Source of the DNA: Eledone cirrhosa
Taxonomy: Eukaryota
DNA: 64,000 nt
Direction: 5' to 3'
Assembly: GCA_964016885.1 (NCBI GenBank)
Contig: OZ024753.1
Span: 13,082,001-13,146,000 of the forward strand
A program made the translations under genes and the position numbers. Below the pieces are notes generated by a model. That model searched no databases and was not told the origin of the DNA. It saw nothing but the letters and a program-made list of their open reading frames with translations. Shown here piece by piece: positions 14,299 through 62,931 of the stretch. Position 1 is the first letter of the stretch. The number at the start of each line of letters is the position of its first letter.

Positions 14299-14550
14299 GA
14301 ATATAGACATATATACACACATAGACACCTATATATATATATATACACACATACATATACACAGACACATATACACACTCACATATATATGTGTGTGCAC
14401 ACACACATATATACACATACACACATATATACATAAACACATATATGTGTATACATGCACACACACACATATATCCACATAGATACGAAGATAGACATAT
14501 AAATAGAGAGACATACATATATATACACACACACATATACATACATACAT

Positions 14551-14623
<73 letters not shown>

Positions 14624-17290: not shown

Positions 17291-18437
17291 ATAATATATC
17301 ACTTAGAATTTCTAACCTTTCTTCTAACCAAGATGTATTTGATAAAAATGCGACCTTCTATAACGAAGCTCTAGATAGAAGTGGCCACAAAAATAGATTA
17401 GAATATATACCTTCTACTAAAAATACTGAAAGCATACAACCTAATATTACCAACAAACACCAAATGAAAAGTACACACCTAAATGCCACCCACACTATAC
17501 CCCAAAATACCAAATCTTCTAATATAAAGTATAGTAACTCTCAAAAAACTACTCATCATACAACTCTAATAAATATTAATAATAAAACTCCTAATAAAAA
17601 GGATAAAACACCTAAATCTACAAATATAACTAAAAATGGTTGTGGTGAGATCATTAACATTAATCCTCCTAGTAAAAATCACGATACAACCTATAAAAAT
17701 AATAAAAATAATAAACAACATAGAAACCGTAATAGACGGGTTACTTGGTATAATGCTCCATTTAATTTACAAATTAAGGATAATATTGCTAAAAAATTTT
17801 TTTATATCCTAGAGAAAAACTTCCCGCCAAACCACAAATACCATCAAATCTTAAATAGGTCTACAGTTAAATTCTCATACTCTGCAACAAATAACATAAA
17901 ACAAAATATAAGTGCCTATAATGCATATAAATGTAAGAAAACCATAAGTATACCACCAGTACATCAAATTAACCATAATATCTCCTCAAATACAGAATTA
18001 ACGAAAGGATGTAACTGTAGAAACAAAGCAAACTGCCCATTAAAAGGGAATTGTCTTGTTAACAACATAGTCTATAAATGTAATGTTAAAACTAAAGATT
18101 CTATTTGCTCATATATAGGAGCTACCTCTAACAATTTTAAGACAAGGTTTAATACCCACAAGCATAGTTTTAAAAATGCCGCACTGGCTAATACAACATC
18201 TCTAGCAGAAAAAATCAATAGTTATAAAAATAAGAATATAGAATATGATTTGACCTGGAGTGTGCTCAAAAGAGCCACCCCTTATCAAAATAATAGAAAT
18301 GAATGTAGATTATGTTCCCAAGAACTATTTGAAATAATGAAATCTAAGGATATCTTATTAAATAAACGACAGGAATTAATTATATCGTGTAATCATAAAC
18401 TAAAAAAAAACATTTAAATATTATAAACCTAATTAAT
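17291..18437 (+). mobile_element. Inverted, more truncated copy of the same Penelope ORF
   Basis: Reverse complement of 15952-17096; an extra A in the terminal homopolymer shifts the last codons. Confidence 0.9.
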
Positions 18438-22468: not shown

Positions 22469-22507
<39 letters not shown>

Positions 22508-22676
22508 TCACATATATATGCGCACATACGTACACATATACACATACACACATATACACATAGACATATACATGTGCATACATGTACATACACACATATA
22601 CCCAAGATACACATATATACAGAGACATACATATACACACGCATATATACACACACATATACACATATATATATAT

Positions 22677-22713
<37 letters not shown>

Positions 22714-23883
22714 ATCATACACCCTTATTTGCATGCGCATATATGTATTTTTATACTCACATATAAACACCTAAACATACATACCTACCTACATATACAT
22801 ACATACATCCACGCTTACAAATACAAATAATAATAGTGGGGGGGGGGATTATAGTAAATATATGTTTCAAGAAACATAGAATATTAATCTGCATTTAGAA
22901 CATAATATGTGTTTACATAGTTTCAGTATTAGGAAATGTAAGAAAGAAGGCAAAACTATGCATTTCAATATAAGTATACCATTAATTATAGGTTAACTAA
23001 ACTAAAGATAGTTAATATATTGATTTCTAAGGTGTATACTACTTAGGTTTATAATATTTGAAGCAGAATTTTGAAGTTAAATAGTGGTAGAGTATTAATT
23101 ATAGTATAACTAAATTAAAATTATTAACGTTATGGTATCAATATTAGGAAATGAATTTAGTAATAGGGAAAAAACAAATAAAGTATTACATCGGTAGTAT
23201 AATATAAATTATAGGTTAACTAAATTAAAAATTATATATTAATTTCTATAGTATATGTTAATTAGGTATATAATAATTAAAACAGATATTTATTTTATCT
23301 ATAGTAGAATATAATTATAGGTAAACAGAAATTAAAATTAATACATACACATATACATATACATATATATATACATATATATATATATATACACATACAT
23401 ATATATACATACACATACATATTATTTCAAAAATTGCAAAGAATATATTAACTAGGTATACATCCAAAACCTATCTCATTCTATGATTATATGACACTCT
23501 GCAATCCATCTGTATTAGGATACTAATTTTAAGCCAATTAAATTAAATTTTTAGGGTGACCAAATTTAAAACCAAATTATAAATATATTTCTAAAATGTA
23601 CATTAATTAGGTCTATAATACTAAAAATTATTTCTCTGTCATTGAATACACGATATTTTGTTATATTTTATCTGTAAAGGAATTTTAATAAAAGGTTAAA
23701 TAAATTAAAATTAATCTATAAATTAAATTACTAAGTATATATTAGTAATATTTAAAAGTTTTTCACAATTTATGATTACACAATATTTTATAATCTCATC
23801 TGTAGTAGAATTTTAATTAAATTAAATTTATAGGTTAACTAACATTTAAATTAAATTATATATTAATTTCTAAAATAATATTA

Positions 23884-26013
23884 TTAATTAGGTTTATAAT
23901 ATTTAAATGTTTTTCTTAGTTTATGATTACACGATATAATTAATTCCTGTCGTTTATTTAATAGGATATCCTTAGATTTCATTATTTCAAATAGTTCTTG
24001 GGAACATAATCTACATTCATTTCTATTATTTTGATAAGGGGTGGCTCTTTTGAGCACACTCCAGGTCAAATCATATTCTATATTCTTATTTTTATAACTA
24101 TTGATTTTTTCTGCTAGAGATGTTGTATTAGCCAGTGCGGCATTTTTAAAACTATGTTTGTGGGTATTAAACCTTGTCTTAAAATTGTTAGAAGTAGCTC
24201 CTATATATGAGCAAATAGAATCTTTAGTTTTAACATTACATTTATAAACTATGTTGTTAACAAGACAATTTCCTTTTAATGGGCAGTTTGCTTTGCTTCT
24301 ACAGTTACAACCTTTCGTTAATTCTGTATTTGAGGAGATATTATGGTTAGTTTGATGTATTGGTGGTATACTTATGGTTTTCTTACATTTATATGCATTA
24401 TAGGCACTTATATTTTGTTTTATGTTATTTGTTGTTGAGTATGAGAATTTAACTGTAGACCTATTTAAGATTTGATGGTATTTGTGGTTTGGCGGGAAGT
24501 TTTTCTCTAGGATATAAAAAAATTTTTTAGCAATATTATCCTTAATTTGTAAATTAAATGGAGCATTATACCAAGTAACCCGTCTATTACGGTTTCTATG
24601 TTGTTTATTATTTTTATAGGTTGTATCATGATGTTTACTAGGAGGATTAATGTTAATGATCTCACCACACACATTTTTAGTTATATTTGTAGATTTAGGT
24701 GTTTTATCTTGTTTATTAGGAGTTTTATTATTAACATTTATTAGAGTTGTATGATGAGTAGTTTTTTGAGAGTTACTATACTTTATATTAGAAGATTTGG
24801 TATTTTGGGGTATAGTGTGGGTGGCATTTAGGTGTGTACTTTTCATTTGGTGTTTGTTGGTAATATTAGGTTGTATGTTTTTAGTATTTTTAGTAGAAGG
24901 TATATATTCTAATCTATTTTTGTGGCCACTTCTATCTAGAGCTTCGTTATAGAAGGTCGCATTTTTATCAAATACATCTTGGTTAGAAGAAAGGTTAGAA
25001 ATTCTAAGTGATATATTATATGCAAGGTTTTTAAGGATAGATTTAGGGTGATTAGATTGTGAGTGTATGTAATGTAAGTTTTGGTTGGGTTTATGGTAAG
25101 GTTGGTAGATACCCGTAGCTAAGTCTAAAGTTAAATCTAGGAAATTTACTACTTTACTTGTTTTTTCAAAAGTAATATGAAGACTATAATAGTCTTTAAG
25201 GAAAGTTCTAATATGCTTTTTGTTTTTTTCTATTTCTGAAAGGCTAAGGTTGTTGGGAAGAAGAAGACAGTCATCACGATATAAACCACCTTTAAGGTGG
25301 GGAAAGGAGGCATTTATGTTGAAAAGGAGAAAGAGGCCCACAAGATCAGTAATTTGGGCGGAATCGCTTGAACCCATAGTAATATCAAATAGATTACTAT
25401 ATGTGTTTCTGGTCCAGTATTCATTCTGAAATTCAATAAGTGTTAGTCTAGCATGTGTAATAATATTAATGTCATCCAAAGTTAAGTTAGATCTATTTTT
25501 AGCAAATATCAATGCTTTGTTCAGGAGTATAGGTGATATAGAAGAATAGTAATTATCTATATCAAATTGTAGAAATGAAGCAGAAGATTTACATCTAATA
25601 TTTTTAAACCAGTTAATTACCTGGGAAGTGTTTTCCCAGAGTGGTAAAATAACGTGTTTTCTTATTTGTGGGATGACTCTATCCAAAATTTTTTTGCTAA
25701 TTATTCCAATATCAGATTTGGAGGGACATATAAGTCTTATAGAAGGATTTGAGTTAAAGTTTGATTTATGATCCTTCAGGTTGAAGTGTGGTCTTTTCAA
25801 TGCCAAAGGTTCAGTTCTATCTTCAATGTTTAGTTTTGTTACTATGTTGTGTGTTTTGTTGTTGATGTTGGTGAGTGACGCATTATTAGATTTTTTATAA
25901 TTTTTCCTGAGTTCTTTATATATGAACTCATTATAATCTTCAATATCCATGTGATACAAGTTACCAGTTTTGTCCGAGTGGACATGGATTTTTTTAGACT
26001 TTTTTAGGTCCAA
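23884..26013 (-). CDS. Penelope-like (Naiad-type) reverse transcriptase + GIY-YIG endonuclease; uninterrupted 709 aa, 5'-truncated
   Basis: DKT motif, [33 protein letters not shown], CxCx5C linker, IVY...YIG, C-terminal CRLC and CNH. Confidence 0.92.
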
Positions 26014-26022
26014 TAGGGTAGA

Positions 26023-26052
26023 ATATTAGTATATATATATATATATATATTA

Positions 26053-26600: not shown

Positions 26601-26645
26601 CTATATATATATATATATAAATATAGTATATATATATATATATAT
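26023..26645. repeat. (TA)n microsatellite periodically interrupted by TTAG
   Basis: Seen directly; similar tracts at 4905-5060, 8820-9180 and 27040-27430. Confidence 0.9.
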
Positions 26646-26646
26646 G

Positions 26647-27027
26647 TATATACAATATTAAATAAATGGAAAACTATATTTATAAAACCATATTTATTTC
26701 ATTATATATATTTCGGGGATATCATATTAACAATATGCTATGCCTTCATCAGACAAAATACAATATAAACAGTTTTATAGATAAATATATTCGACATACC
26801 GTAATAAACATCGACTTCATTTGAAGAGGTTTACGCTAGCAGTCTCTCTTCAAATGAAGTCGATGTTTATTACGGTATGTCGAATATATTTATCTATAAA
26901 ACTGTTTATATTGTATTTTGTCTGATGAAGGCATAGCATATTGTTAATATGATATCCCCGAAATATATATAATGAAATAAATATGGTTTTATAAATATAG
27001 TTTTCCATTTATTTAATATTGTATATA
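26647..27027. repeat. Hairpin of ~180 bp arms with 17 bp spacer; hammerhead motif in each arm (26695-26760 minus, 26914-26979 plus)
   Basis: Arms are reverse complements; plus arm TATTTTGT-CTGATGA-stem II-GAAAT ATAT AT A-ATGAAATA. Confidence 0.88.
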
Positions 27028-27044
27028 TATATATATATATATAG

Positions 27045-27299: not shown

Positions 27300-27716
<417 letters not shown>

Positions 27717-27718
<2 letters not shown>

Positions 27719-28046
27719 ACAAACTGGCCAAGGAGGCTGAAGAGTACGTAAAGGTAATACAATCCCCCAATTCCGATGCTATCAAGAAACATGAAGAGAT
27801 TAAAGAAAATGTAACAGACATGACAAACTGAGTTCATCACTGAGCGTATTAAATGATACTTTGCAGTATATTGTAGGATATCTCGTATTTGGTAGTATTC
27901 TTAGTTGTTGTCTTACAACTTACGGAATAATAAATAACTTATTACGAAATAATACGGATTCATACATTTATGTATTACTTACGACGTTCGGCTTCCTGTT
28001 TTACTGGATTATACTAGTTTTGTTGGGCCTCCGTTTACATATATCG
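27717..28046 (+). pseudogene. 3' fragment of a type A gustatory-receptor-like exon
   Basis: Highly similar to 45690-46020; 1 bp frameshift near 27808; GTAAGT donor at 28047. Confidence 0.8.
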
Positions 28047-28589
28047 GTAAGTCTATATATAAATGTCTGTGATTCTGTCACAACACGTAAACAGAGAGGG
28101 GTAGTTTGATTACATCATACTACTCCTCTCTCTTTATGTCTGCTGACTGCGTGAATGTATGTGTGTGTAAAAGGAAGGCAGGAGGTGGTGAAAAACTATA
28201 GTGGTTGGCGTTCCACTTGTTATGCTGTACATGCGTGTATGTTTGTGTGAATGTAAGTGTGTGTGTTTATGTGAATGTATATCTAGATGTGCGTGTGTGT
28301 ATGTGTTTGTGTGAATTAGTGTTTGTGTGAATGTATGTATGTGTTTTCATGAGTGTATGTGTATGTTTGTGCGAATGTATGTCTAAATGTGTATTTTTGT
28401 AAGTGGGTCCATGTTTGCACGTTTATATTAATATACTCGTACATATAAATGTATGTATATGCATATACACACATGCGCGTCAGTGTGTTGAATAATTTTA
28501 TATAATATCTATACATTATGCATTCTGTCAATACCTGATTTTATACACATGTGTATTTGTATGAAACACAGTTTTCTGTAGTTTATCCT

Positions 28590-45030: not shown

Positions 45031-46020
45031 ATGCATAAGATTACAAGTATTGAAGAAGGCCAACACAGTGAAAGCTTGAAAATAAAAGACACGATATTTT
45101 TCAAGTTCCTGAAATATTTTTTAGAACATAATTATATGAGATTAAGTGAAATGATATCTTTACTGAAATCACACACGTTCAAAGCATTGTGTTTGCTAGC
45201 TATTTATATTGTGGTCTTTATATATTTGATTCTAAACCCTATTTGTCTCATTGTTAATTTAACAACCTTAAAAGGTATACCTGATGCCAACATATTTATG
45301 TATGTCTACATTACATTTTGCTGGTGTATGATGTCTGTCCTATGTTTAATGAAATATTTCAAAGAGCCTCATTTCAAGGACATAATTGAAATATTCTCCA
45401 AAATTGAAATTGAAGAGAAAGATGGAAAACTGTACAGTTTCATATATTCATATAAGTCACTTTCTATATTAACAGCTGTGTATAGTATTTCTATCATAAT
45501 TACAGAGCTCATAATACCTATTTTTAGTAAAGACAGTGATCTGTTGGATTTTCTAGTATTTCAAATGACGATGGATTATAAGTACCTCATGGTAATTTTA
45601 AAATTTACACTACAAATTCTTTCCACTGTACCGCTGATGATTGATCTGTATATAAGCATTATACTTGAGCTTAATCTTACTCATGAGTTTAACAAACTGG
45701 CCAAGGAGGCTGAAGAGTACGTAAAGGTAATACAATCCCCCAATTCGGATGCTATCAAGAAATATGAAGAGATTAAAGAAATATGTAACAGACATGACAA
45801 ACTGAGTTCATCTCTGAGATTATTAAATAATACTTTGCAGTATATTTTAGGATTTCTCGTATTTGGTAGTATTCTTAGTTGTTCTCTTACAACTTACGGA
45901 ATAATAAATAACTTATTACAAAATCATACGGATTCATACAAGTATGTATTAGTTATGGCGTTCACCTTCCTGTTTTACTGGATTATACTAGTTTTGTTGG
46001 GTCTCCGTTTAAATATATCG
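45031..46020 (+). CDS. Intact large first coding exon (330 codons) of a type A gustatory-receptor-like (7TM chemoreceptor/ion channel superfamily) gene; C-terminal exon(s) not found
   Basis: About six hydrophobic segments; long loop HEFNKL...EICNRHDKLSSSLRLLNNTLQYILGF resembles the GR pre-TM5 H..L.....LN pattern; phase-0 GTAAGT at 46021, equivalent in all paralogs. Family assignment is by eye. Confidence 0.72.
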
Positions 46021-46044
46021 GTAAGTCTATATATAAATGTGTAT

Positions 46045-46136
46045 GTCACCCATATATTTATGTTTCTGCTGTGTTTGGCACCAGCCTGGCCTTTCTTAAT
46101 ATAATCTTTTCTTGTGCACTCCGGTTAAACAGATCG
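46045..46136 (+). pseudogene. 3' tail of a second type B GRL exon, followed by its intron start
   Basis: Matches about 32460-32550; similarity continues through the donor (46137) and the intronic SINE. Confidence 0.8.
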
Positions 46137-46182
46137 GTAAGTTACATCTTCGTTTTCCTTTTCTTTACATTTTTAGTATTAT

Positions 46183-46605
46183 GGATTGGCAGTGTCGGTA
46201 GAGCGTCAGACACCATGCTTTGTAGCATAGTGTTATGGCCCTTTACGTTCTGATTTGAAATCCCGCCGTGATTCACTTTGCTTTTCATCTTTACGGGGTT
46301 GATAAATAATGTACCTTAATGCATTGTGGTTGATTTAATCGACTTTCCCTTCCCCCAAAATTGTCGGCCTCGTGCCTAAATCAGAAATTATTATTTCCAT
46401 TATTATTCTTATGGCGGTGGATTGGCAGTATCGGTAGAGGGTTGGACGCCTTGCTTTGAAGTACAGAGTTACCTCCCTGTATGATCTGAGTTCAAATCCT
46501 GCCGAGGTTAACTTTGCCTCACATCGATAAAATATAGTACCAGTAATACATTGTGTTAATTGCTGGCCTTGTGCCAAAAGTAGAAATAATTATTATTATT
46601 ATTAT
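46183..46605 (+). mobile_element. Two tandem SINE copies, positionally paralogous to 32595-32998
   Basis: Same consensus and same position relative to the type B donor. Confidence 0.75.
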
Positions 46606-46791: not shown

Positions 46792-47700
46792 CCCCTCCCC
46801 TTCTATGTAAGGTAGTAGTAGTAGTAACTCCCCCTCCTTCTATGTACGGTAGTAGTAGTAGTGACTCCCCCTCCTATGTACAATAGTAGAAGTGACTCCC
46901 CCTCCTATGTACAGTAGCAGTAGGAACTCCCCCTCCTTCTATGTACGGTAGTAGTAGTAGTAACTCCCCCTCCTATGTAAGGTAGTAGTAGTAGAAACCC
47001 CCCTCCTCCTATGTACAGTAGCAGTAGTAACTCCCCCTCCTCCTTTGTACAGTAGTAGTAGTAACTCCCCCTCCTATGTACGGTAGCAGTAGTAACTCCC
47101 TCTCCTTCTATGTACAGTAGTAGTAGTAACTCCCCCTCCTATGTACAGTAGCAGTAGTAAACCCCACCCCCTCCTCCTATGTACAGTAGCAGTAGTAAAC
47201 CCCACCCCCTCCTCCTATGTACAGTAGCAGTAGTAACTCCCTCTCCTCCTATGTACAGTAGTAGTAGTAACTCCCCCTCCTCCTATGTACAGTAGTAGTA
47301 GTAACTCCCCCCCTCCTATGTACAGTAGTAGTAGTAACTCCCCCTCCTCCTATGTACAGTAGTAGTAGTAACCCTCCCCCCTCCAATGTACAGTAACAGT
47401 AGTAACTCCCCCTCCTCCTATGTACAGTAGCAGTAGTAACTCCCCCTCCTATGTAAGGTAGTAGTAGTAACACCCCCTCCTCCTATGTACAGTAGCAGTA
47501 GTAACTCCCCCTCCTCCTATGTACAGTAACAGTAGTAACTCCCCCTCCTCCTATGTACAGTAGCAGTAGTAACTCCCCCCCCTCCTATGTACAGTAGTAG
47601 TAGTAACTCCCCCTCCTCCTATGTAAAGTAGCAGTAGTAATCCACCCTCCTCCTATGTACAGTAGTAGTAATAACTCCTCCTCCTCCTATGTAAAGTAGC
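46792..47700. repeat. ~32-37 bp minisatellite (CCTCCTATGTACAGTAGTAGTAGTAACTCCC)
   Basis: About 26 imperfect units. Confidence 0.92.
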
Positions 47701-47974: not shown

Positions 47975-49375
47975 AACTCTTTCCTACAATCAGACCTAGA
48001 CACAATGCAGCGATGGATCACAGACAGGCAACTGAAGCTGGCTGTGGACAAGTGTACCACCATGCATTTGGGGAGGAAAAATCCAGCCTCCACATACTCC
48101 CTCCACAACACTGATATCAAGAAGTCCTCTTGTGAACGTGACCTAGCCATGACTGTCAGCAGCGATTTGTGTTGGACAAAGCTCATCTCTAAAATTGTCC
48201 TGAAGGCCGAAGGTGTCTTAGCATCACTCAGCAAGACCTTTGTTAGCCGCTCTCCAGCCATCTATTTAAAGCTGTATCATCAGTCTGGAACCCCTATCTT
48301 GCTCAGAACATTCACCGCCTGGAAACTGTTCAGAGACGTGCAACCAAGCGCATAGCCTCCATCAGACACCTACCATACTCTGAACGCTTTGCTTCCCTGG
48401 GCATGGATTCATTGAAGATCCAACGTCTGGCAATGGACTTGGTAAACACCACCAAAAGTTATTAACCATCTCGCCAATAACAACCCTGAGAACCCTTTTA
48501 ATCTCCATGTGTCTAACATACGTGGACATACCTACAAAGTCAGAAAATAGCATAGCTCCCATGACTTTCGGAAACATTTTTTCACGCTTAGACTTGCTGA
48601 AACATGGAACAAACTGCCTGCGTCAGTTGTTAGCTGCCGAGACACTGCATCCTTTAAAACCTCCATGCAACAAACTGCCTGTGTCAGTTGTTAGCTGCCG
48701 AGACACTGCATCCTTTAATACCTCCACGGAACAAACTGCATGCGTCAGTTGTTAGCTGCCGAGACACTGCATCCTTTAAAACCTCCATGGAACAAACTGC
48801 CTGCGTCAGTTGTTAGTGTCGAGACACTGCATCCTTTAAAACCTCCATGGAACAAACTGCCTGTGTCAGTTGTTAGTGTCGAGATACTGCATCCTTTAAC
48901 ACCTCCACGGAACAAACTGCCTGCGTCAGTTGTTAGCTGTCGAGACACTGCATCCTTTAAAACCTCCATGGAACAAACTGCCTGCGTCAGTTGTTAGTGT
49001 CGAGATACTGCATCCTTTAACACCTCCATGGAACAAACTGCCTGTGTCAGTTGTTAGTGTCGAGATACTGCCTCCTTTAACACCTCCACGGAACAAACTG
49101 CCTGCGTCAGTTGTTAGCTGCCGAGACACTGCATCCTTTAAAACCTCCATGGAACAAACTCCCTGCGTCAGTTGTTAGCTGCCGAGACACTGCATCCTTT
49201 AAAACCCTCATGCTTCCCGAAATTCGCCAAAACTACACCTGATGTCCTCCTTCCATACACATGCACACGTGTATATCATGACTCATGCACTGTTTATTTT
49301 CCTGACGTTTGTATATTACCCTATGTACTATACATACACCTTTGATGAGTTGTAGTGCACCTGAGCACTGTACAT
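47975..49375 (+). mobile_element. 5'-truncated CR1-like LINE 3' portion with an internal minisatellite
   Basis: LQSDLDTMQRW, KCTTMHLG, ERDL, VWNPY, LETVQRRATK, RGHTYK, FF....ETWNKLP; 3' boundary approximate. Confidence 0.85.
48603..49210 (+). repeat. 60/61 bp minisatellite, 10 units, derived from the CR1 ORF2 C-terminal codons
   Basis: Unit encodes WNKLPASVVSCRDTASFKTS; paralog at 55722-56025 has 5 units. Confidence 0.92.
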
Positions 49376-49490
49376 CCTCCGGGGAAAACGCCTTCTCCAT
49401 TCTGTCCTCCGGCGCTGTGGGGCGGCCAGCACGTGGGTCCCCATTTGCTCATTAAACAGAGAGATTGGGAGGGCGATAGAGATGGGAGCG

Positions 49491-49835
49491 ATTACGGTGG
49501 GAGTTCGGCTCTTCCGTGTTCCGACACATTGGGGCGAGACAGATGGGGGCGATTACGGTGGGAGTTCGGCTCTTCCGTGTTCAGACACATTGAGGCGAGA
49601 GAGAAGGGGTCGATTACGGTGGGAGTTCAGCTCTTCCGTGTACCGGCACATTGGGGCGAGAGAGAAGGAGTCGATTACGGTGGGAGTTCGGCTCTTCCGT
49701 GTTCCGACACATTGGGGCGAGAGAGATTGGGGCGATTACGGTGGGAGTTCGGCTCTACCGTGTTCCGACACATTGGGGCGAGAGAGATTGGGGCAATTAC
49801 GGTGGGAGTTCGGCTCTTCCGTGTTCCGACACATT
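49491..49835. repeat. 61 bp GC-rich minisatellite, about 6 units
   Basis: ATTACGGTGGGAGTTCGGCTCTTCCGTGTTCCGACACATTGGGGCGAGA...; paralog at 56308-56530 has about 4 units. Confidence 0.92.
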
Positions 49836-50011
49836 GTACCTATCAAGGGTGTATTTTCATACTTGTAACGAACATTGTGAATTCCTATTTATAATTTGAA
49901 TATAGCAAACAACTTGTTCACTGTTATTCCTTCTCCAATAATAGCTACTAACAGACCTATTAATAAAGGCGGATCAGAACCTTCTTCTGCTGCTCCTGTA
50001 AGGATAATAAT

Positions 50012-50192
50012 AATTATTTCTACATTTGACACAAGGACAGCAATTACACCAGTACATTACTAGTACTTTATTTTATCGACTCCGTAAGGATTAAATGAAA
50101 AGCAAAGTTAACCTCGGCGAGATTTCAACTCAGTCTGTAAAGAACCGTAACTCTATGCTGAAAAGCATGGCGTCCGACCCTCTACCGATACT
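50012..50192 (-). mobile_element. tRNA-derived SINE, mostly deleted in duplicate copy B
   Basis: Same consensus. Confidence 0.75.
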
Positions 50193-50357
50193 ATTCAAAC
50201 GCAACACAGGGTTTTCAAAAGAACTTGACGATATGTGACAAAATAGATAAGTTCCAGAGCTCTATAGCCGTAAAACTTGTGTCAAATATAAAAAAGCAAA
50301 GAGAGAAAGAGTTCTCGCTCGTGGACAACACAATGATCTATACGTTTGTATCCCTTA

Positions 50358-50441
<84 letters not shown>

Positions 50442-50937
50442 CTGAGAAATGGTATGAGCATAGGCCAGAGGCGGTGATGGAGAACAATCAGGTGAAGGTG
50501 CTGTGGGATTTTAGGATACAGACGGACAAAAAACTGGAACACAATAGACCTGACCTGGTGGTTGTGGACAAAGAAAAAAGATCGTGTCTGATTGTGGATG
50601 TGGCCTGCCCGTTCGACACGAGAGTGCAAGAGAAGGAGAGGGAGAAAATTAACCGATACCAGGACCTAAAGTGGGAGATGAAAAGGATTTGGAACTGCCA
50701 TGAAGTCAAAGTGATCCCGATTGTCATAGGCGCACTGGGGACTATCTCCAAAAGTTTCCAGGGATGGTTAAAGAAAATCGGCCCCTTCACGCTTTTTGGA
50801 ACGCTTCAAAAGGCATGCTTGCTTGGAACAGCAAGAACCCTCCGATACGTCCTGAATATCTGAGGCTGCAGGTAGTGGCTTGATATTCAATCCAACGGAC
50901 TTTCCAGTTAACCAACATCAATGACTGAGATTCAAGG
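50442..50937 (+). mobile_element. Heavily 5'-truncated R4/Dong-like element (RLE domain + 3' UTR) in (TAA)n
   Basis: KWYEH.P, LWDFRIQTD..LEHNRPDLVV, DVACP, KINRYQDL, PIVIGALG; TAA repeats on both sides. Confidence 0.9.
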
Positions 50938-50975
50938 AATAACAACAATAATAGTAATAATAATAATAATAATAA

Positions 50976-53900
50976 AGAAAAAGAAAAAGAGAGAAAAATG
51001 GTCAAGGGAAGATAATAAAGAAGTCCTTGAGGCTTTCTACACTGCCATGTACTACCCATCAAATACATCGAATACAGAACAGACATATATCAACTGGAAA
51101 AAGAAACATCCCGAAAACAGAGGCTATATTGACAGTAACAAACTAGCCAATATACGAAGAAATATTGTAAGAAAAAAGTTACTAACTGATATAGAAATTG
51201 ATCAGATCAAGCTATTAGCACAAAGTCAGCGAAGGGAAAATGAAACATGTGTCAGTGAAAACGAGGTAAACTGTAACACTTCGAATCCCAGGGTTGGGGC
51301 GGAATCACTGGCAACAGAACAAATTAAAGAAAGGATCGAAAAAGTGGAGGGAGTGCATGCTCAGGATGAAACTCCAAATGAAAATAATGAGATCGTAAAT
51401 TATAAGGAAATGAATGAGAATGAACTTGCCAACTTGAAGGATGAAATTATGATCGAATGGATGAAAATGAAAGAATCTGACATGGGACAACGAGACACCC
51501 TCCCTAAGATCCAGAACTCCAAACAGAACCAAAAGATAATACACAAGACTAACATAATTCTCAAAAACATTATCATCACAAAAAAACTAAACATTACTGA
51601 TTTAAATCATCTCTATTATGCATCGGCTAAAGTCACCACTCACTTATGTGGAGTGAAGATGAAAAAACAAAGGAATTCCCACAAGAAATCTACTTGGCAA
51701 GAGAACATCAATCGCCAAATAAACCTTCTCCGATCTGACATAGAAGTTTTAACAAACTATAAAGTAGGTGAACATGTTAAACAAACTAAACTTAGAAAAT
51801 TGAAAAAAAAGTACAGTATAAAATCAACATGTGACATAGACATGCTGATAGAAATAATCAAGCAAAAAGTGTCGGCCAAAGCTGCTCGTATAAGGCGCTT
51901 TGAAAAACGATCTAGATTCTATAAGGACAATAATATGTTCAAAAACAACCAAAGAAACTTCTACAGAAAAATTGGTAAGTCAACAATAACTGCTAAATCA
52001 ATACCACCCAAGGAGGAAGTGCAAGAATTCTGGGAAAAGATCTGGGCCGAAGAAAAAGTTCATAACATACATGCCCCATGGATAGACAGACAAATGAAAG
52101 ATACAGCTCACCTTGAGGAACAAACATGGGAAAATATAACAGTTGAACAGTTGCGCTTGGCTCTAAGAAAAACCAGCAAATGGAAATCCCCAGGAAAAGA
52201 CAAAATACAAAACTTTTGGATAAATGCCTTCACAGAGTCTCGTGAGCTGTTAGCCCAACTTTACAATGAAATAGTTAAGGAGCCAGAAAAGATACCGTCA
52301 TGGCTAGTTAACGGCATTACATTCCTGCTTCCGAAGAATGATGAGACAAACAATCCCAAAAATTACAGACCGATAACTTGCTTGACCACAATGTATAAAA
52401 TTTTAACATCAGTCCTAACTGAATACACATATGACCACCTGATAACAAATGACCTATTTCCCATTGAGCAGAAAGGGTGTTTACGAGGCTCATATGGCTG
52501 TAAGGATCAGCTTCTGGTTAACAAAATGATACTGGAAGATTGTCATAATAGACACAAAAATCTATCGATTGCTTGGATAGATTATAAAAAAGCATTTGAT
52601 AGTTTGCCACACAGTTGGATTGAAAAATGTTTAGAGATTTTCAAAGTATCCCCCGTTGTCAGGAGGTTTTTGTCATTCAGTATGAAGACAGGGAAATAAA
52701 ATCACTGGAAGCTGGAGAAGTTAATATTAATTGTGGAATTTTTCAGGGTGACTCTTTATCACCGCTTTTATTTTGCATCGCACTTATACCATTAAGTAAA
52801 ATGCTCAATGAAACAAAACATGGATATAAAGTCTATGACAAAACCATTAATCACCTGTTCTACATGGATGACCTGAAACTATTTGCAAAAAATGATGAAC
52901 AATTGCAAGGGCTATTATCCACTGTGAAGCAGTTCAGTGATGACATTAAAATGGAGTTTGGACTAGATAAATGCGCCAAAGCAACGTTCACCAGAGGAAA
53001 GCTGCTGAAGAGTTCAGACATTAATCTTGATCGGGGGAACGTGATAAGAGAACTTGATCAAGAAAAAACTTACAAATATCTAGGTGTTTGTGAAGGAGAC
53101 GGAATCAAGCACTCGACAATGAGGGAAAGGATAAGGAAGGAATGTTACCGCAGAGTAAGAGCAATCTTAAGAACGGAATTGAATGCAAGGAATAGGATCG
53201 ATGCCATAAACACGCTTGCCATACCAGTAGTAACCTACAGTTACAATGTCATCAACTGGTCAAGCACAGAGATCCGTAGGCTCGATACAAAAATTCGAAA
53301 ATTCTTAACCATGCACAGAATGCATCACCCTAAGGCAGATATAGATAGAATATATCTCCCTAGGAAAGAAGGAGGACGTGGGTTAATCCAGTTAGACATT
53401 GCGTTGAAAACTGCAACAATTGGATTATCTACATATCTAAGGGAATCACATGACTGGATGAACAAACTCGTTTTGAAACACGAAAGCATCAAAAGATCAT
53501 ATTCCATTACAAAAGATGCACAAAGATACAGTAATGGACTACAAATTTCAGAAGTCCCATTTACTGCTGAAATGGAAAACACAGAAAAAGCAAAGCAGGT
53601 AAAAGTAACTGCAAAGAAAGAACTGCTACAGAAACTGGCTAAGAAATGGCAAGAAAAGCCTCTGTATGAAAAATACCCAGAGCGAGCTAACAATCCTGAT
53701 GTTGACAAAACGTTAACCCATCAGTGGTTGGCATCCTCTGGACTGAAATCGGAGACTGAAGGACTGATTATATCGGCACAAGATCAGTGTCTGCCAACAA
53801 AAAATTACCAAGCCAACATAATAAAAAATGGGTGCAGCCCATTATGCCGTGTATGCAAAAAACAACCAGAGACCATTGACCATATAATTTCAATGTGCAG

Positions 53901-54554
53901 TCCTATAGCTCCAACCGAATACCTAAACAGGCATGACAGAGCTGCACAATACATACATTGGATAATGTGTAAGCATTTTGACCTGCCCCATCAAAAGAAT
54001 TGGTGGGAGCATCAACCACCTCCCATACTTGAAAAAGATCACATCTCAATCTTGTGGAACTTTAGCATCCAAACAGACCGAAAAATAGATGCAAACAGAC
54101 CTGATATAATATTGAAAGACTTTCAAAAGAGGGTATGCCTGCTAATTGATATGTCTGTTCCAATAGACAAGAATGTATCTATAAAAACATTTGAAAAATT
54201 GAGCAAGTATAAGGACCTGGAGATAGAAATTGGAAAAATGTGGAAATTGAGAAGTAAAACAATACCAGTGGTTGTAGGCGCTCTGGGAATGATACCTAAG
54301 GGGTCTAATGATTACATATCGCAAATCCCAGGAAACCCGCGTATAGGAGAAATACAAAAGATAGTACTAATGGGAACTGCCCATATACTAAGGAAGATTC
54401 TCTCAATATAAGTACATCACAAGTCTAAACACTAAAGATGCATGTGTGAATATGTATGTTCTTTCTTGAACATGGCGGACCTTGTTGTCTCTTGAGGTCA
54501 CTGGTTGTGACTTGGTGATAATTCGTATGAACATAAAGCAAGATAAATGCAACT

Positions 54555-55161: not shown

Positions 55162-56190
55162 AAAAATCCAGCCTCCACATACTCCCTCCACAACACTGAT
55201 ATCAAGAAGTCCTCTTGTGAACGTGACCTAGCCATTACTGTCAGCAGCGATTTGTGTTGGACAAAGCACATCTCTAAAATTGTCAAGAAGGCCGAGGGTG
55301 TCTTAGCATCACTCAGCAAGACCTTTGTTAGCCGCTCTCCAGCCATCTATTTAAAGCTGTATATAGCTATGGTACGGCCACACTTGAAATTCGCATCATC
55401 AGTCTGGAACCCCTATCTTGCTCAGAACATTGACCTCCTGGAAACTGTTCAGAGACGTGCAACCAAGCGCATACCCTCCATCAGGCACCTAACATACTCA
55501 GAACGCTTTGCTTCCCTGGGCATGGATTCATTGAAGCTCCGACGTCTGGCAATGGACTTGGTAAACACCAACAAAAGTTATTAACCATCTCGCCAACAAC
55601 AACCCTGAGAACCCTTTTAATCTCCATGTGTCTAACATACGTGGACATACCTACAAAGTCAGAAAACAGCATAGCTCCCATGACTTTCGGAAACGTTTTT
55701 TCACGCTTAGAGTTGCTGAAACATGGAACAAACTGCCTGCGTCAGTTGTTAGCTGCCGAGACAATGCATCCTTTAAAACCTCCATGGAACAAACTGCCTG
55801 TGTCAGTTGTTAGCTGCCGAGACACTGCATCCTTTAAAACCTCCATGGAACAAACTGCCTGCGTCAGTTGTTAGTGTCGAGATACTGCATCCTTTAACAC
55901 CTCCACGGAACAAACTTCCTGCGTCAGTTGTTAGCTGCCGAGACACTGCATCCTTTAAAACCTCCATGGAACAAACTGCCTGCGTCAGTTGTTAGCTGCC
56001 GAGACACTGCATCCTTTAAAACCCTCATGCCTCCCGAAATTCGCCAAAACTACACTTGATGTCCTCCTTCCATACACATGCACACGTGTATATCATGACT
56101 CATTCACTGTTTATTTTCCTGACGTGTGTATATTACCCTATGTACTATACATACACTTTTGATGAGTTGTAGTGCACCTGAGCACTGTAC
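55162..56190 (+). mobile_element. Duplicate CR1-like fragment
   Basis: Paralog of 48077-49375; retains the YIAMVRPHLKFASSVWNPY segment partly deleted in copy A. Confidence 0.85.
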
Positions 56191-56852
56191 ATCCTCCTTG
56201 GGAAACGCCTTCTCCATTCTGTCCTCCGGCGCTGTGGGGCGGCCAGCACGTGGGACCCCATTTTCTCATTATACAGAGAGATTGGGAGGGCGAGAGAGAT
56301 GGGAGCGATTACGGTGGGAGTTCGGCTCTTCCGTGTTCCGACACATTGGGGCGAGACAGATGGGGGCGATTACGGTGGGAGTTCGGCTCTTCCGTGTTCC
56401 GACACATTGGGGCGAGAGAGATGGGAGTGATTACGGTGCGAGTTCAGCTCTTCCGTGTTCCGACACATTGGGGCGAAAGAGAAGGGGTCGATTACGGTGC
56501 GAGTTCAGCTCTTCCGTGTTCCGACACATTGCACCTATCAAGGGTGTATTTTCATACTTGTAACGAACATTGTGAATTCCTATTTATAGTTTGACTATAC
56601 CAAACAACATGTTCACTGTTATTCCTTCTCCAATAATAGCTACTAACAGACCTATTAATAAAGGCGGATCACCCTCTACCGATACTGTTCGAACGCAACA
56701 CAGGGTTTTCAAAAGAACTTGACGATATGTGACAAAATAGATAAGTTCCAGAGCTCTATAGCCGTAAACCTTGTGTCAAATATAAAAAAAGCAAAGAGAC
56801 AGAGTGTCCCCGCTCGTGGGCAACACAATGATCTATACATTTGTATCCCTTA

Positions 56853-56886
<34 letters not shown>

Positions 56887-57149
56887 GTAATAATAATAAT
56901 GATTTCTTTATTAACCACAAGGGTTTACATAAAGTAGACATTAAGGACAGTGCAGGACAATGCAGGACGGTACAAAAGGGCATTTCTGCGTGTAAAAAAC
57001 AAAAACAGAGGATGTAACAAAAATAACAATGAAAAATTCCCCAATAGGGGGGAGACTTCGGAGGGACATTTGTGGAGAAAGCCCAGTAAAAAGCCACAAT
57101 GACCCTGACCACCAAGGCAAGTGCCCTCTCCCAGTTTTCCACCTTTAGT

Positions 57150-60100
57150 TTACAGATATATACTCAGAGTCGGCCCATTCACTCGGGCCATTCTTGCTTC
57201 TCTCACCCATCTTTCAACAAAATGCTGGGAAGAGAGCACTTCCCTCTCTACTCTGATTTTCCTTTTCAAATGAAATTTGAAAAAGTCAATCAGAGCATCA
57301 CCGAAGAGGTAAGTGCTCGTCTTCAGCCCTTTCAAACGTGTCCACCATACTATCTCTTTCGCCATGGCCACCAGACAGATAAAAACTGCCTGCCCTTCCC
57401 GGCTAAAGGAGGAGGGCGGGGCAATCCTCACGATAGACTCAGATGATAGCTGGATCCGTCCTAAACGCGACAGCAGGTGTTCGACATAAACCCACAAGTC
57501 AGCAATTTTCGGACACTGGACGAGTGCGTGCAGGACGGTTTCGTCGCCCTGCGCGCATCTCGGACATGCCCGGCTGACGGCACCTCCATGCCTGTAGAGT
57601 TTATCCCGAACTGGCAAGGCTCCTCGGTAGCACTGCCAGGCCAGAGATTTCTGGAAGTTGTCCATAGGCCCTGGCCCGAAAGTTCTTCCGAAGAGATTGG
57701 CTAGTTGATTTTCGTCGACGCCTAGAGTTTCCCCAAGTACGTCGTCGCTCTTCCCCTCCACTAATCCTCTATAGAACGCCGAGGTGGAGTTTCCACCGAT
57801 CACATTGCCCGATTGGTCGAGGGCTGTGAGCGCCTGAAGACATTCCAGTCTCCAGGCGCTCCCTCTCGGTCTTCGCTTGACCCAGGACTGCAGCTCCGTC
57901 AAGGAAACGAGCTGGGGAAAAACGCGTCTAGCAAACGGCGACCACACCTGATCACCGTCGAGGAAGAGGTGGGGATGTCGTAGCCTGAGCGCGTGCCTGC
58001 GCATCATCAGCCACGGCATGCCCAGCCCTCCACGTAGCGGGTGTTGACAACAGATGGACCGCCTGACCATCGGAGCACGTCCCTTCCACAAAAAGCGAAA
58101 GAGCAAACGCTCCAGCGCAGTCAGGCGAGGCTTAGGACAAGGTACGACGGTTAGGCGGTAGCAGATGATAGACGCGATGTACGCGTTAGCCACCTCCGCT
58201 CGACCTTTCAGGGATAGCTTCCTCTCCGCCCATTTCTGGGTGAGAGAAGCCACCCTGCTCGTCACCTCGTCCCAGTTTTTGTCCGTCTGGAGGTCCGGAC
58301 CGAACCAGACCCCTAGCAATTTAACCGGTCCGTCCGTCCAGCGCCCGACGACGCTGTTGGACGGCATGGACCTGCCTCTCCAGGTGCCGAGCTGCAGGCC
58401 CACTGACTTTTCCTGGTTGATCATTGCTCCTGTCACCGCTTCGTATTCTCTTAGTGTAGTGCCGATCGCCTCGATGTGTTTGGCGTTCGACACCACTACG
58501 GTGACATCGTCCGCATATGCTGACACGGATCTTCCGCATCCTAGTTCGCGCGGGACTCCCCTCAACGTCTCCAGTTTGTGCAGTAATGGCTCGAGAGTCA
58601 ATACGTACAAGAGGGACGAGAGGGGACATCCTTGGCGGACCGAGCGCATGATGTTGAACGGTTCCGACAGGTGACCGTTCACTCTCACCACAGAGCAGAT
58701 GTCGCTGTGCATGGCAGCGATCCAGCCTCTGAAGACGGGCCCAAAGCCAGCCGCCCTCAGGACTGCCGCTAGGTAACGATGGTCGACCCTATCGAAAGCT
58801 TTCGACTGATCTAAATTGATCAAGGACCCACCCGTGCCAGGTTACCTAGCTACCCTCTCTACGATGTATCGCATGAGGTGGAGGTTGTCGTGGATGGATC
58901 TGTCGGGAATGGCGCATGTCTGCGCCTCTCCCACCAGACCACCAACGACAAGCGCCAACCTCTTTGCTAGCACCTTGGCCAAAATCTTAAACTCTGTGTT
59001 TAGCAGAGTTATGGGCCGGAAATTGTCTATGTTATCCCCCTTGTTCGGATCCTTTCTCAGCAGTGCCACCGCTCCTCGGCTCACAGAACTGGGAATTCTC
59101 CCGTTCTGTTGCCAGTTGCAGTAGACGTCCGCCAAGAGGCCTCCGAACAAGTCTGGCATCTGTACGTAAAGTTCATAGGGCAGACCATCCAAACCAGGCG
59201 ATTTACCCCTTGTGCAGCCAGTCATTGCCTCCCGTACTTCAGCGGCTGTTATCGGCTTTTCGCAACACTTCGCCTCAGTGGCCGAGAGCCGCGGCAGTCC
59301 GTCGAGGTAGACACTAAAGTCCATCCCTCTACCCGGCCCCCCGCTGCCCCCGAACAGCTGAGCGAAGTGTCGCTGAAAAGCTTCACACATTTGCCCGGAT
59401 TCGAGTAGCATGCGCCCGTCGTGGTCCACCAAAGACCGGATCGTGGCTTTGTTGCCACGACGCGCCTCCGCCACTCGGGCCCATTGAACGGCTTTCGTCC
59501 CCTCGTGTCTGAGAGCACGCACCCTAGCTCTGACAACGCAGCCTTCGTGCTTTGCATTGAAGAATTGGTCAAGGGCCAATTTTGCCGCAAGCACGTCGGT
59601 CGCAATGCCTTTGCTAAGCGCCTCGTCTAATTTTCTAACTAGTTCTCCCTCTGCTCTATTTTTCTCTATTGCTAAATCCTTACTAAACCTAATCGATTCT
59701 ATTCTAATCGCTCTTTTCAGAGCAAACCACCACTTGTTGTTGACGATGGCCCCCGTCAACGCCCGCTTAACTAGTTCGCTAATCCGGTCTCTGTAGGCCT
59801 TGCGCGCTGGTAAGGACGCGTTTAGCTTCCAGTAGCCGGGTCCTCGTCTATGAAGCCTATCTAAGTCAAGCACACAGGTCACGAATTTGTGGTCCGTGTA
59901 GCTGACTATCTTGAATTGTGGACAGCCTATGCTAGACCTATCTATTTCCCTACAAAATACTCTATCTAGATATGATCTGGATGACCCTATGCGGTTTGTC
60001 CAAGTCCACATTGGCACATTCGGGAAATCCAATCGGTACCTGTCAGACAGTTCAAAACGCCTGAGCAGGTTGGTGAGGCTCTTGCACCCTCCACCCCTAT

Positions 60101-60569
60101 CCGCTAATCCCACACAGTCCCAGCGTGCATCTAAGATCCCGTTCCAGTCGCCCACTAACACTAAAGAGCGGGACGTTCCAAGAAAGGTCTCCAGACGCCG
60201 GAAGAAATCAGGCCGCCCTGCTCCTGTCGGGGCATAGACGGCCACTAGCCTGAAAGCTTGCCCGTCTCCGCTGGTCACGTCCAGCACCACCAGCTTACCC
60301 TCTGGGTCCAGGAAGATGGCCCGTATGGCGAGATCTAAACCTCTCCGAAAAAGCACAGCAACTCCTCCACCCGATCCAGGACGGCTGGGAGATGTGTACA
60401 CATCGTAGCCGCCGAAGATCGGTGCGAAGGCCCGTGCTTCGGAGATTCTGGTCTCGCTGATGGCCACTACATCTACGTTTAGTGACCTGAGGTCGTTGAG
60501 CAGGTGACCCTGCTTCCATGACGACCCCAAGCCACGCGCATTTATGCTGCCTATTCTGAGTGAGGTCAT
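57150..60569 (-). pseudogene. Tx1-like ORF2 (APE endonuclease, RT, C-terminal CCHC) with one in-frame stop
   Basis: SINARGL, SETR, VYAP, GDWN, LDRV, TDH; KSPGLDG, FRPITLLN, KAFDRV, RQGCPLS, YADD; CPRC..ETVLHALVQC. The two ORFs share a frame, separated by TAA at 58842-58844. Confidence 0.92.
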
Positions 60570-60604
60570 GTTTAAAATATAGTGGAAAAGATGGGAAAGA
60601 CCAC

Positions 60605-62701
60605 TTACCGTACTTTTGGTAGAGGAGGGATGGTTTTTACATCCCTTTTCACTTGATCGTCTGGTGAAGGGACCGTTGAATCGTCCCTTCGGCTGGTCGT
60701 CGGCTCTTCTAAGAGAATGTCTGAATATACTCTTCGATTGATGGTTCCTCCTAGGTCCCTGAAATCACCAACTGCGTTGGGGAATTTCGTTTTAATGTTT
60801 GTGTATTCTTTCTGTGCTATTTTTAGCAGTCTTATGTTAGTTGGCGTTTTGATTGGTGCTGGTATTATGTAGTCCTGTTGTGAAATGTCTGTGTGTTCAA
60901 TTATGTAAGTCATTAGTTTCTTGTTGTGTGTGTTTATTGCCGTGCATTTGTTTTTCTGGGGGTGGGGTGTGGTTCTGCTATTTTCTTGTCGTTGTTGCTG
61001 GGTGTGTGTGTTTTGTTGTTGTGTTTGCGATGTTGGTGCTTGTGGTGGTGGTGTTGAAGGTGTTGTTGGCGGTGGGGTTGTCGCCGGTGGTGATGGTGGT
61101 GCTGGTGTGGGTGGTGATGGTGTTGGTGGTGTTGCTGCTGTGGGTCTCTTTGCAGTAGACTTTATCCTTTTCTCATTTCTTTCCTCCCTTTTCAAAGGCG
61201 ACGATGCGCTGCTTCTGCGTTTGTGCCTTCTTGCGACCTTTTGCCATCCCTCTCCCACCTCACACTCCATGTCTGATTCTGTGAGGTCGGGGAGGGGTAC
61301 CAGCTCCACTCTTTCACTTGTTGTTGTTGGTGATGTTTGCACTGGAGTCTCTGTTGCAGCTGCATTTGGTATTGCTGTTGTTGTTGTTAATATTTCCACT
61401 GCTGCTGCTGTTTTTGATATCCGTGGAGTCGGTATCGGTGCCACGGGCCTATCGTTCCTGGTTGCCGCTTGTCCTGTTGCTGGTGGCCGTGGAGCCGGAT
61501 TCGGAAGGAGGGGGGTTTTCTCCTTTCTCAGGGTCTTCTCGTTGCAGAAGGCCCTGAGGTGAGTCTTCGATCCACAGCGAAAGCATTTCGGGCGTTTGCC
61601 CTCAACACTTATGGGCAGTTGAGTGCCGTTATCGAAGTCTATCACATCCGGGATAGCTTCGATGCACTCCTGGTTGGTTTGGATTAGCATCTCAATGGAG
61701 GAGCCGACCCAATCTTCTCTTACTTTTTTCTGTACTTGCAGTACAGTTGTTTTGTCCTCGATTCCGACGAGGACAGACGCGGCCAGCCAAGAAGGGGTCA
61801 TTCCGGGGGAGACGTGGGTCAGTTTGACCCTCACAATTTTTTGCCCGCAGTAGGAGGGCACCAACACCATTTCCTCGCTCCTTAGGGTCACTACTGATTG
61901 GGCCTTTGCCTCCTGGGGTGTGGCAAAAAGTACGTCTACGGTGGAATATTTTTTGCCTCGGGTGATGTGCGTTTTCCGCTGCCACACAGACCCCAAGGCT
62001 TTTTGTATTTGGGCCTCTGTGGCTCTTTCCACCCTACGGGATTTTGTACTTACTGTACGGTACGTGACCGTACAGTGCTCTTGGGTTTCGAAAAATTTTT
62101 CCGCTGCCTTGCAGATTGCTCGGTGTCCGTTCTTTGTCACCATCTTCTTCGCTTCCTCTAATTCCTCATTTGTTATGAGGATTGTTTCCAAGTTTTTCGC
62201 AATACCTGCAAATGAGATTGGTTTTTCTCTGCTGTTGTTGTTGTCGTCAGAGCTGCTGGTACTTTTGTTGTTGCTGCAGGTACTACGACTACTGCCTCCG
62301 CCGCTGTTGCTGTGGTTGTTGTTGGTGTTGCTGCTGCTAATGCTGTTGTTGTTTATGCTGCTGGTGATGCTGTTGCGGCTGCTACTGTTGTTTTCATTGT
62401 CACTGTTGCTGTTGTTATTACGGCTGCTACTGCTATTATTCCTGACGTCAGACGAATGAACTGGGTTTTCGTATTTCCTGCACACCTGTTTCGTCGCTGT
62501 CGTCGTCGTCGTGGAGAAACCTTGCACGCTTTGCACGAGACTTTTCTTTTCTTTCGTCACTTGCGAAAGAGAAGGGAGGGAGAGAGACACATTTAAAGAA
62601 GGGAGGGAGAGAGACAATCTTCTCTCTGCTGTAGTGATGATTGAGGAAGAAGAAGACGGAATGAGTGGGAGTGACGTATGAAATTTCTTTTTCGTAGCCA
62701 T
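60605..62701 (-). CDS. Tx1-like ORF1 with zinc knuckle, 698 aa
   Basis: CFRCGSKTHLRAFC (CX2CX4HX4C), low-complexity S/N and P/T regions, directly upstream of ORF2. Confidence 0.88.
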   Translation of the reverse strand: MATKKKFHTSLPLIPSSSSSIITTAERRLSLSLPSLNVSLSLPSLSQVTKEKKSLVQSVQGFSTTTTTATKQVCRKYENPVHSSDVRNNSSSSRNNNSNSDNENNSSSRNSITSSINNNSISSSNTNNNHSNSGGGSSRSTCSNNKSTSSSDDNNNSREKPISFAGIAKNLETILITNEELEEAKKMVTKNGHRAICKAAEKFFETQEHCTVTYRTVSTKSRRVERATEAQIQKALGSVWQRKTHITRGKKYSTVDVLFATPQEAKAQSVVTLRSEEMVLVPSYCGQKIVRVKLTHVSPGMTPSWLAASVLVGIEDKTTVLQVQKKVREDWVGSSIEMLIQTNQECIEAIPDVIDFDNGTQLPISVEGKRPKCFRCGSKTHLRAFCNEKTLRKEKTPLLPNPAPRPPATGQAATRNDRPVAPIPTPRISKTAAAVEILTTTTAIPNAAATETPVQTSPTTTSERVELVPLPDLTESDMECEVGEGWQKVARRHKRRSSASSPLKREERNEKRIKSTAKRPTAATPPTPSPPTPAPPSPPATTPPPTTPSTPPPQAPTSQTQQQNTHTQQQRQENSRTTPHPQKNKCTAINTHNKKLMTYIIEHTDISQQDYIIPAPIKTPTNIRLLKIAQKEYTNIKTKFPNAVGDFRDLGGTINRRVYSDILLEEPTTSRRDDSTVPSPDDQVKRDVKTIPPLPKVR

Positions 62702-62931
62702 GTTGTTTTTTGTTTAAAATGAATACAAAACCCCAATAACTGGTTATTTAACCCCGAAGGGCCAAATAACGGACAGAAAGACCCCTCTCACGAGGAGGAC
62801 GGTGTCTTTATCAACAATTTGGTTCAAGTTTTAAACAATTTACAATTGTTTTAACGGTTAAAAATTACTATACCTTACAGAGCCGAGCCTCCGTCAACCA
62901 TGGCATTCAATAATAATAATAATAATAATAA

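Follow-up and report, generated by a model that had tools for sequence, protein, structure and literature searches.

Candidate variable first exons of a gustatory receptor-like channel family in the octopus Eledone cirrhosa

Results and Discussion

A long open first exon and three copies on the same strand

We analyzed a window of 64,000 nucleotides from Eledone cirrhosa (assembly GCA_964016885.1, contig OZ024753.1, forward-strand positions 13,082,001 to 13,146,000), an AT-rich stretch of animal DNA dense in dinucleotide repeats and retroelement remnants. Within it lies exon A (45031-46020, + strand), an intact long first coding exon that runs stop-free for 330 codons from an ATG. The longest stop-free run in 2,000 shuffles of exon A averaged 46 codons and reached 149 at most. 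The 3' edge of the exon, TCG followed by GTAAGT, is a phase-0 splice donor (46021-46026, + strand) that is also supported by relatives and falls at the end of helix S6. The 330 residues comprise N-terminal helices and S1 to S6 of a predicted gustatory receptor (GR)-like seven-transmembrane (7TM) ion-channel subunit. Six hydrophobic peaks are present (Kyte-Doolittle score of at least 1.5; residues 50-68, 88-106, 144-162, 186-204, 268-286, and 306-324), and an AlphaFold model of exon A likewise contains six helices. An earlier sequence-only reading of this DNA had described a 330-codon open exon with about six transmembrane segments, which the stop-free ATG frame and the six peaks bear out. That reading had also called the protein intact. 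The exon is indeed open from end to end, but the seventh, pore-forming helix is neither encoded in exon A nor found in the window. Thus, because helix 7 is missing, exon A is not a whole receptor.

Contigs from four public runs cover exon A, and the complete indel table for them lists no exon-internal indel; all four runs belong to a single study, and the source sample may be among them. Among the contig matches listed for these runs, no joint starting at the 46020 donor appears. Contigs with 9 to 11 differences over 120 to 180 nt sit on exon A beside near-identical ones, a hint of further A-type copies elsewhere in the genome.

Exon B (31603-32550, + strand), recognized by alignment and by a profile match of 330 bits, is a full-length paralogous first exon of 316 codons with a phase-0 donor at 32551. 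Its codon 170 is an in-frame TAA (32110-32112), possibly a sequencing error or a polymorphic allele. Exons A and B are identical at 114 of 320 positions (36%), and their local alignment score is 491, against 46 ± 7.5 (maximum, 80) in 1,000 shuffles. The distant neighboring paralog claimed from the sequence alone is therefore real, and the nine anchor motifs named as common to types A and B all occur in both copies in the same order.

Two further copies are fragments. Fragment C (27717-28046, + strand) is the 3' third of an A-type exon and has a 1-nt deletion, with the donor kept at 28047; it matches exon A at 330 of 351 nt (94% DNA identity) and is its sister in the tree with support of 100/100. 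Fragment D (about 46050-46136, + strand) preserves the terminal 29 codons of a B-type exon, with the donor kept at 46137 and then the start of B's intron, and 464 of 559 nt are identical to 32465-32999, intron included. Fragment D sits directly behind the exon A donor. An assembly error is an unlikely cause of this arrangement, because in two of the four runs listed a 110-nt contig covers 46013-46122 with no difference. The window thus holds four same-strand first-exon copies in the order C, B, A, D, and each keeps the phase-0 donor at the same position after S6. No fifth copy emerged when the window was scanned with the profile in all six frames.

Origin of the copies and the state of exon A

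Synonymous divergence (dS) is 0.044 between A and C and 0.047 between B and D, values that come from few sites (3 and 1 synonymous changes, respectively) and that fit one tandem duplication of an A+B unit. Under this model, C...B and A...D would be the two copies of the unit; after the duplication C, D, and B would have been damaged, with most of C and D lost, while A stayed open. An array of this kind would gain and lose exons by tandem duplication and decay. Repeats aside, we found no flanking sequence common to the two A+B units.

A palindrome with 198-nt arms (99% complementary) and a 17-nt loop occupies 26631-27043, and a second, partial copy lies 783 nt away at 27385-27716. The 5' part of fragment C is lost at this palindromic repeat, and C starts exactly where the second palindrome copy ends, which suggests that the element caused the truncation.

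The comparison of A with C yields 17 nonsynonymous and 3 synonymous changes (dN, 0.069). The amino acid changes fall on both sides, with seven on the intact copy, seven on the broken copy, and one tie. The data reject an average omega of 0.3 (P = 0.002) but not an omega of 1. This near-neutral pattern means that A may be drifting; either diversifying selection or a recent death of the exon could account for it.

We judge it unlikely that exon A has recently died or become an orphan, with a frame kept open by chance in a decaying array of this lineage. Three of the four window copies are broken, which would fit such a history, as would the near-neutral comparison of A with C and the long stem of the A/C lineage (0.92 changes per column), a lineage without a named ortholog in the first-exon tree. 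In simulations with substitutions only, a frame also escaped stops in 28% of runs at 3% divergence. However, none of 2,000 simulated frames was open at 30% divergence, and thus the A lineage has been under selection for most of its history. The start codon, frame, six helices, and donor of exon A are all intact, the family-conserved residues D205, H255, L258, N266, and Y289 are all kept, and the public runs list no indel within it. The excess of amino acid change fits receptor diversification too.

Exon A has the predicted fold and topology of insect odorant and gustatory receptors

We compared the AlphaFold model of exon A (built on an alignment of 20 sequences; mean pLDDT, 76.9) with 48,161 chains by VIA-align. 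The top eight chains were all insect odorant receptors (OR), Orco, or GRs, with Z scores from 19.3 to 12.5, and the next chain scored 7.8. The best was MhOR5 (Z, 19.3; rmsd, 3.6; 281 aligned), with BmGr9 at 14.8 and Gr43a at 12.5. The solved receptors MhOR5 (7lic), Orco (8z9a and 6c70), BmGr9 (8vc1), DmGr43a (8jm9), and DmGr64a (8jme) matched over exon A residues 16-330; identity in the structural alignments of exon A and of a full-length relative was 7 to 14%. The slightly higher Z scores for ORs than for GRs are no sign of OR membership. A model of a full-length Octopus sinensis isoform placed the same eight chains on top (Z, 21.4 to 16.1; next, 8.2), with its tail modelled at a pLDDT below 50. 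Foldseek also ranked OR/GR rows first for the exon A model (TM, 0.41 to 0.56), with no match at an E value of 0.001 or less. In the ESM Atlas feature search, the first hits (0.96) were 7tm_7 clusters, both for exon A and for the O. sinensis relative.

With helix limits set by hand, the N-tail, loop 2, and loop 4 contain 8, 6, and 9 lysines and arginines, respectively, and loops 1, 3, and 5 contain 1, 2, and 0. This positive-inside pattern predicts an intracellular N terminus, the reverse of a G protein-coupled receptor (GPCR). The loop between S4 and S5 has 61 residues and is, on the same prediction, a long intracellular loop 2 of the 7TMIC type.

Exon A alone has no match to Pfam 7tm_7. Its relative XP_036361419.1 reaches 27.4 bits against a cutoff of 26.6 (one of seven proteins), XP_052825892.1 stays under that cutoff at 25.1 bits (one of three proteins), and 2 of 23 alignment members match at an E value of 0.01 or less. 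Judged from sequence identity, the putative membership of exon A in 7tm_7 is transitive, through relatives to which it is 37 to 40% identical. A sequence search of the PDB gave no significant match; the best was Gr43a (E, 0.08 to 0.7), and for XP_036361419.1 it was unrelated proteasome chains. Sub-threshold matches to Pfam 2TM, HEF_HK, and others were set aside as composition matches.

These results agree with what had been proposed from the sequence alone, a divergent GR-like 7TM ion channel: insect ORs and GRs are the best structure matches (the top 8 of 48,161 chains), the N terminus of the six-helix protein is predicted to be intracellular by the positive-inside rule, contradicting the extracellular N terminus of a GPCR, and all named relatives are from Octopus. 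On the Pfam side, a relative reaches the 7tm_7 cutoff.

Octopus relatives switch to a TM7 tail at the exon A donor point

Relatives of exon A number 14 among 1.84 billion representatives, at 29 to 40% identity; two are named (O. sinensis and Octopus vulgaris) and 12 are Logan proteins. When the C-terminal part of the O. sinensis protein served as query, three more full-length Octopus proteins came up among 72 candidates. Every named relative is an Octopus protein annotated as "uncharacterized," and no non-octopus protein appeared by sequence among the named matches in the 1.84 billion representatives. The O. sinensis protein XP_036361417.1 is 37% identical to exon A over its residues 2-318. 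In a word-indexed protein search, none of 2,647 candidates passed with exon A alone and 1 of 8,000 passed with the first-exon alignment. The protein collection has no exact copy of exon A, of its read-through form, or of the first half of exon B.

The relatives locate the splice point and the missing helix. In read-through relatives, which are translated from DNA, Val-Ser stands at the exon A donor point (9 of 10 by pattern and the tenth in the alignment); this is the donor GTA AGT read in frame. Spliced Octopus proteins switch at the same point to a 71-residue tail, and in them the seventh helix is present. Passages of PMC9998090 and PMC7746228 give the GR tail motif as TYhhhhhQF, and the latter calls the TM7 motif (T/S)Yhhhhh(Q/K/E)(F/L/M) diagnostic, not definitive. 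The tails of the Octopus relatives end in TYILVVIQT, a variant that agrees with the GR motif at three of four positions and has Thr at the last. Every octopus tail seen has this QT ending in place of QF.

Annotated proteins of other octopus species suggest how first exons and tails combine. In the RefSeq protein models of O. sinensis LOC118764607, isoforms X1 and X3 have tails identical at 71 of 71 residues and N-terminal parts identical at 63 of 140 (45%), the first exon of X3 being represented by just 141 residues. The tail of the neighboring LOC118764608 is identical to that of LOC118764607 at 65 of 71 residues, and thus O. sinensis has at least two tails. The O. vulgaris protein CAI9727304.1 contains part of one first exon and, behind it, the beginning of a second, an arrangement that tandem exons would predict.

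A tree of 24 first-exon rows contains about ten deep lineages, some of them common to O. sinensis, Octopus bimaculoides, and Logan rows. Counts per genome are lower bounds, at least two lineages in the window and three exons in the O. sinensis annotation; we infer an expansion within one genome. Two sets of Logan proteins, each an N-half and a C-half, come from contigs of equal length (1,725 and 1,739 nt). Each set is likely one broken first exon, so that the relatives, too, include pseudogenic exons.

The copies are likely alternative first exons

Insect Gr and Or genes include loci in which tandem long first exons are followed, after a phase-0 intron, by short shared 3' exons, as passages of PMC6175461 describe. 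In E. cirrhosa, C, B, A, and D lie in tandem on the same strand without a tail match between them over 18.4 kb. We found no tail exon in the 64-kb window, where the best 14-residue windows score 23 to 32 against self-scores of 65 to 79. Our main reading, to which we give a probability of about 0.6, is that exon A encodes S1 to S6 of an OR/GR-fold (7TMIC) protein and is one of several variable first exons spliced to shared tail exons outside the window, and that the products are predicted tetrameric ligand-gated cation channels, likely chemosensory in octopus. The copies are thus likely alternative first exons and not separate genes.

We consider it improbable that exon A instead begins a stand-alone GR-like gene whose private tail lies more than 18 kb downstream, and that the copies are ordinary tandem genes and pseudogenes. 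Whole-gene duplicates would carry tails, yet none lies between C, B, A, and D or elsewhere in the 64 kb, and one O. sinensis locus joins two unlike first exons to one tail. Two points speak for a stand-alone gene: the pair of O. sinensis loci with different tails means that tails can duplicate, and nothing links A to a particular tail. On balance, we retain the reading of variable first exons with shared tails.

A proposed division of labor between first exon and tail

In insect GRs, S1 to S6 form an extracellular-facing ligand pocket, S7a and the inner S4 to S6 form the anchor of the four subunits, and S7b lines the pore, according to passages of PMC12635824. Mapped on insect GRs, the octopus exon boundary falls between the ligand-pocket and pore parts. 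By analogy, each variable exon would supply its own S1-S6 ligand pocket, and the shared tail would supply S7a as the anchor and S7b, with the TYhhhhhQ motif, as the pore. First-exon choice would then set ligand specificity, while the pore and much of the assembly surface stayed constant, so that isoforms could co-assemble into mixed tetramers. Judging by the tail motif, the change of the gate residue from Phe to Thr may alter gating.

The X2 isoforms of both O. sinensis and O. bimaculoides skip the same 14-residue in-frame exon just after helix S6, which implies a second phase-0 intron. This conserved skip lies in the predicted anchor region and could affect assembly.

From the pattern of divergence, tandem growth, and decay in the repertoire, and by analogy with insect receptors, we infer a chemosensory role. 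A variable-exon locus of functional 7TMIC channels could instead serve an internal, developmental, thermal, or light-related role, not external chemosensation, a prospect that we rate as low. Some GRLs outside insects are tied to development and not to sensing in passages of PMC7746228 and PMC7067487, and the former reports expression of Nematostella and sea urchin GRLs in early development as well as thermal, light, or motor-neuron roles for Drosophila GR28b isoforms and Caenorhabditis elegans homologs. However, many divergent ligand-pocket exons (30 to 45% identical), rapid turnover, and pseudogenes make an environmental repertoire pattern, like that of insect Gr genes in passages of PMC6175461. 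External chemosensation by OR/GR-fold channels stays our preferred role.

A GPCR or an unrelated membrane protein is a reading that we regard as almost certainly wrong: exon A lacks a direct 7tm_7 match and GPCR chains occur in the weak Foldseek list, but those rows have probabilities of at most 0.28, TM of at most 0.19, and rmsd of about 25 Å, every VIA-align match with a Z of at least 8 is an OR or GR, and the charge pattern puts the N terminus inside.

Relation to known receptor systems

The 7TMIC superfamily, GRLs in mollusks, and variable-first-exon splicing in insects are already known. GRLs (7TMIC superfamily; Pfam 7tm_7, PF08395) are reported from Mollusca, Annelida, Nematoda, and Cnidaria in passages of PMC7746228. 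The octopus family resembles animal GRLs in its predicted fold and predicted inside-N topology, its long first exon running to a phase-0 intron after S6, and the TYhhhhhQ of the Octopus relatives' tail, and differs in that the octopus motif ends in QT, not QF. The roughly ten divergent first-exon lineages, counted in a multispecies tree, compare with two GRLs per spionid annelid genome and with one to four per decapod transcriptome, as given in passages of PMC11730519 and PMC7067487, respectively.

Among insects, alternatively spliced Gr loci include Blattella Gr60a-m (up to 13 isoforms) and Drosophila Gr28b and Gr39a, and some isoforms are pseudogenic (passages of PMC6175461). The octopus layout is alike in its tandem long first exons and short shared 3' exons, the shared tail here being taken from the O. 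sinensis RefSeq models. It is unlike them in occurring in a cephalopod mollusk, in proteins 7 to 14% identical to solved insect receptors in the structural alignments. Those solved receptors are homotetrameric or heterotetrameric ligand-gated cation channels; they are the top structural matches, whereas sequence similarity to them is not significant (best E, 0.08, Gr43a).

Chemotactile receptors (CRs) are pentameric derivatives of nicotinic acetylcholine receptors (nAChR). Up to 26 occur in O. bimaculoides, according to passages of PMC11526382. CRs and the present family are alike as lineage-expanded ionotropic receptor candidates in octopus. They are unlike in fold: that of the present family is the OR/GR type, unrelated to the nAChR fold, and the listed fold matches include no nAChR, in keeping with the sequence-only reading, which had expected a family distinct from the CRs.

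Cephalopod chemosensation is discussed in terms of CRs, IRs, and GPCRs in passages of PMC11682238, PMC11526382, and PMC11886862. One sentence in the last of these places "gustatory receptors" in cephalopod suckers and cites chemotactile-receptor papers, in a passage without a gene family analysis. The available parts of the literature searched contained no description of a cephalopod GRL family and no report of a variable-exon layout in a lophotrochozoan. Five accession strings of octopus genes occurred in no paper of the literature searched, and the word "octopus" is absent from the main text of Eyun 2017 and Benton 2023.

Beside CRs, IRs, and GPCRs, candidates for a fourth class are O. sinensis LOC118764607 and LOC118764608 and O. 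bimaculoides LOC106880719, all "uncharacterized." Data already collected from suckers, olfactory organs, and single cells could be searched for these genes without delay. Screens that rely on 7tm_7 would miss part of the family, because most first exons have no annotated tail and escape Pfam. A ligand pocket separate from the pore would make a convenient system for the evolution of 7TMIC tuning outside insects.

A broader picture is possible, which we put forward tentatively and with more doubt than belief. Octopuses may have a second ionotropic chemoreceptor repertoire of at least ten fast-diverging GR-like ligand-binding exons, arrayed like protocadherin variable exons, which splicing would join to a constant pore cassette present once or twice. 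Sensory cells of the suckers or the olfactory organ would be tuned differently through the choice of promoter or exon, on a common channel with Thr replacing the gate Phe. Were this so, the locus would be the first variable-exon 7TMIC locus known from lophotrochozoans and would directly offer candidates for octopus receptors of distance or contact chemoreception outside the CR family.

Repeats and other content of the window

Behind exon A, 46182-46596 (no strand assigned) carries two copies of a very high-copy, probably SINE-like interspersed repeat with many matches across the window, which also occurs in the intron behind exon B. Summed contig depth rises to about 4 million over this repeat, against about 50 to 200 over exon A. 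ARAGORN found no tRNA genes in the window.

Long non-LTR retrotransposon frames lie at 1143-4551 (+), 50912-54411 (+), and 57150-62713 (-), each with an RVT_1 match. In the third, which looks near complete, an endonuclease frame and a long upstream open reading frame are present as well. Three frames on the minus strand (15952-18417, 23884-26025, and 34412-36321) resemble what we take to be Penelope-type reverse transcriptase/GIY-YIG elements; the two of them that were tested gave no Pfam match at an E value of 1e-4 or less.

Minisatellites with periods of 34 and 61 nt occupy 46814-47699, 48603-49206, and 49471-49836, and recur at about 55162-56903. The block 48077-50408 is duplicated about 6.5 to 7 kb downstream at 92 to 95% identity. 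Farther upstream, 14491-17290 and 22486-25213 form a 2.8-kb direct duplication with 90% identity that contains one retroelement frame.
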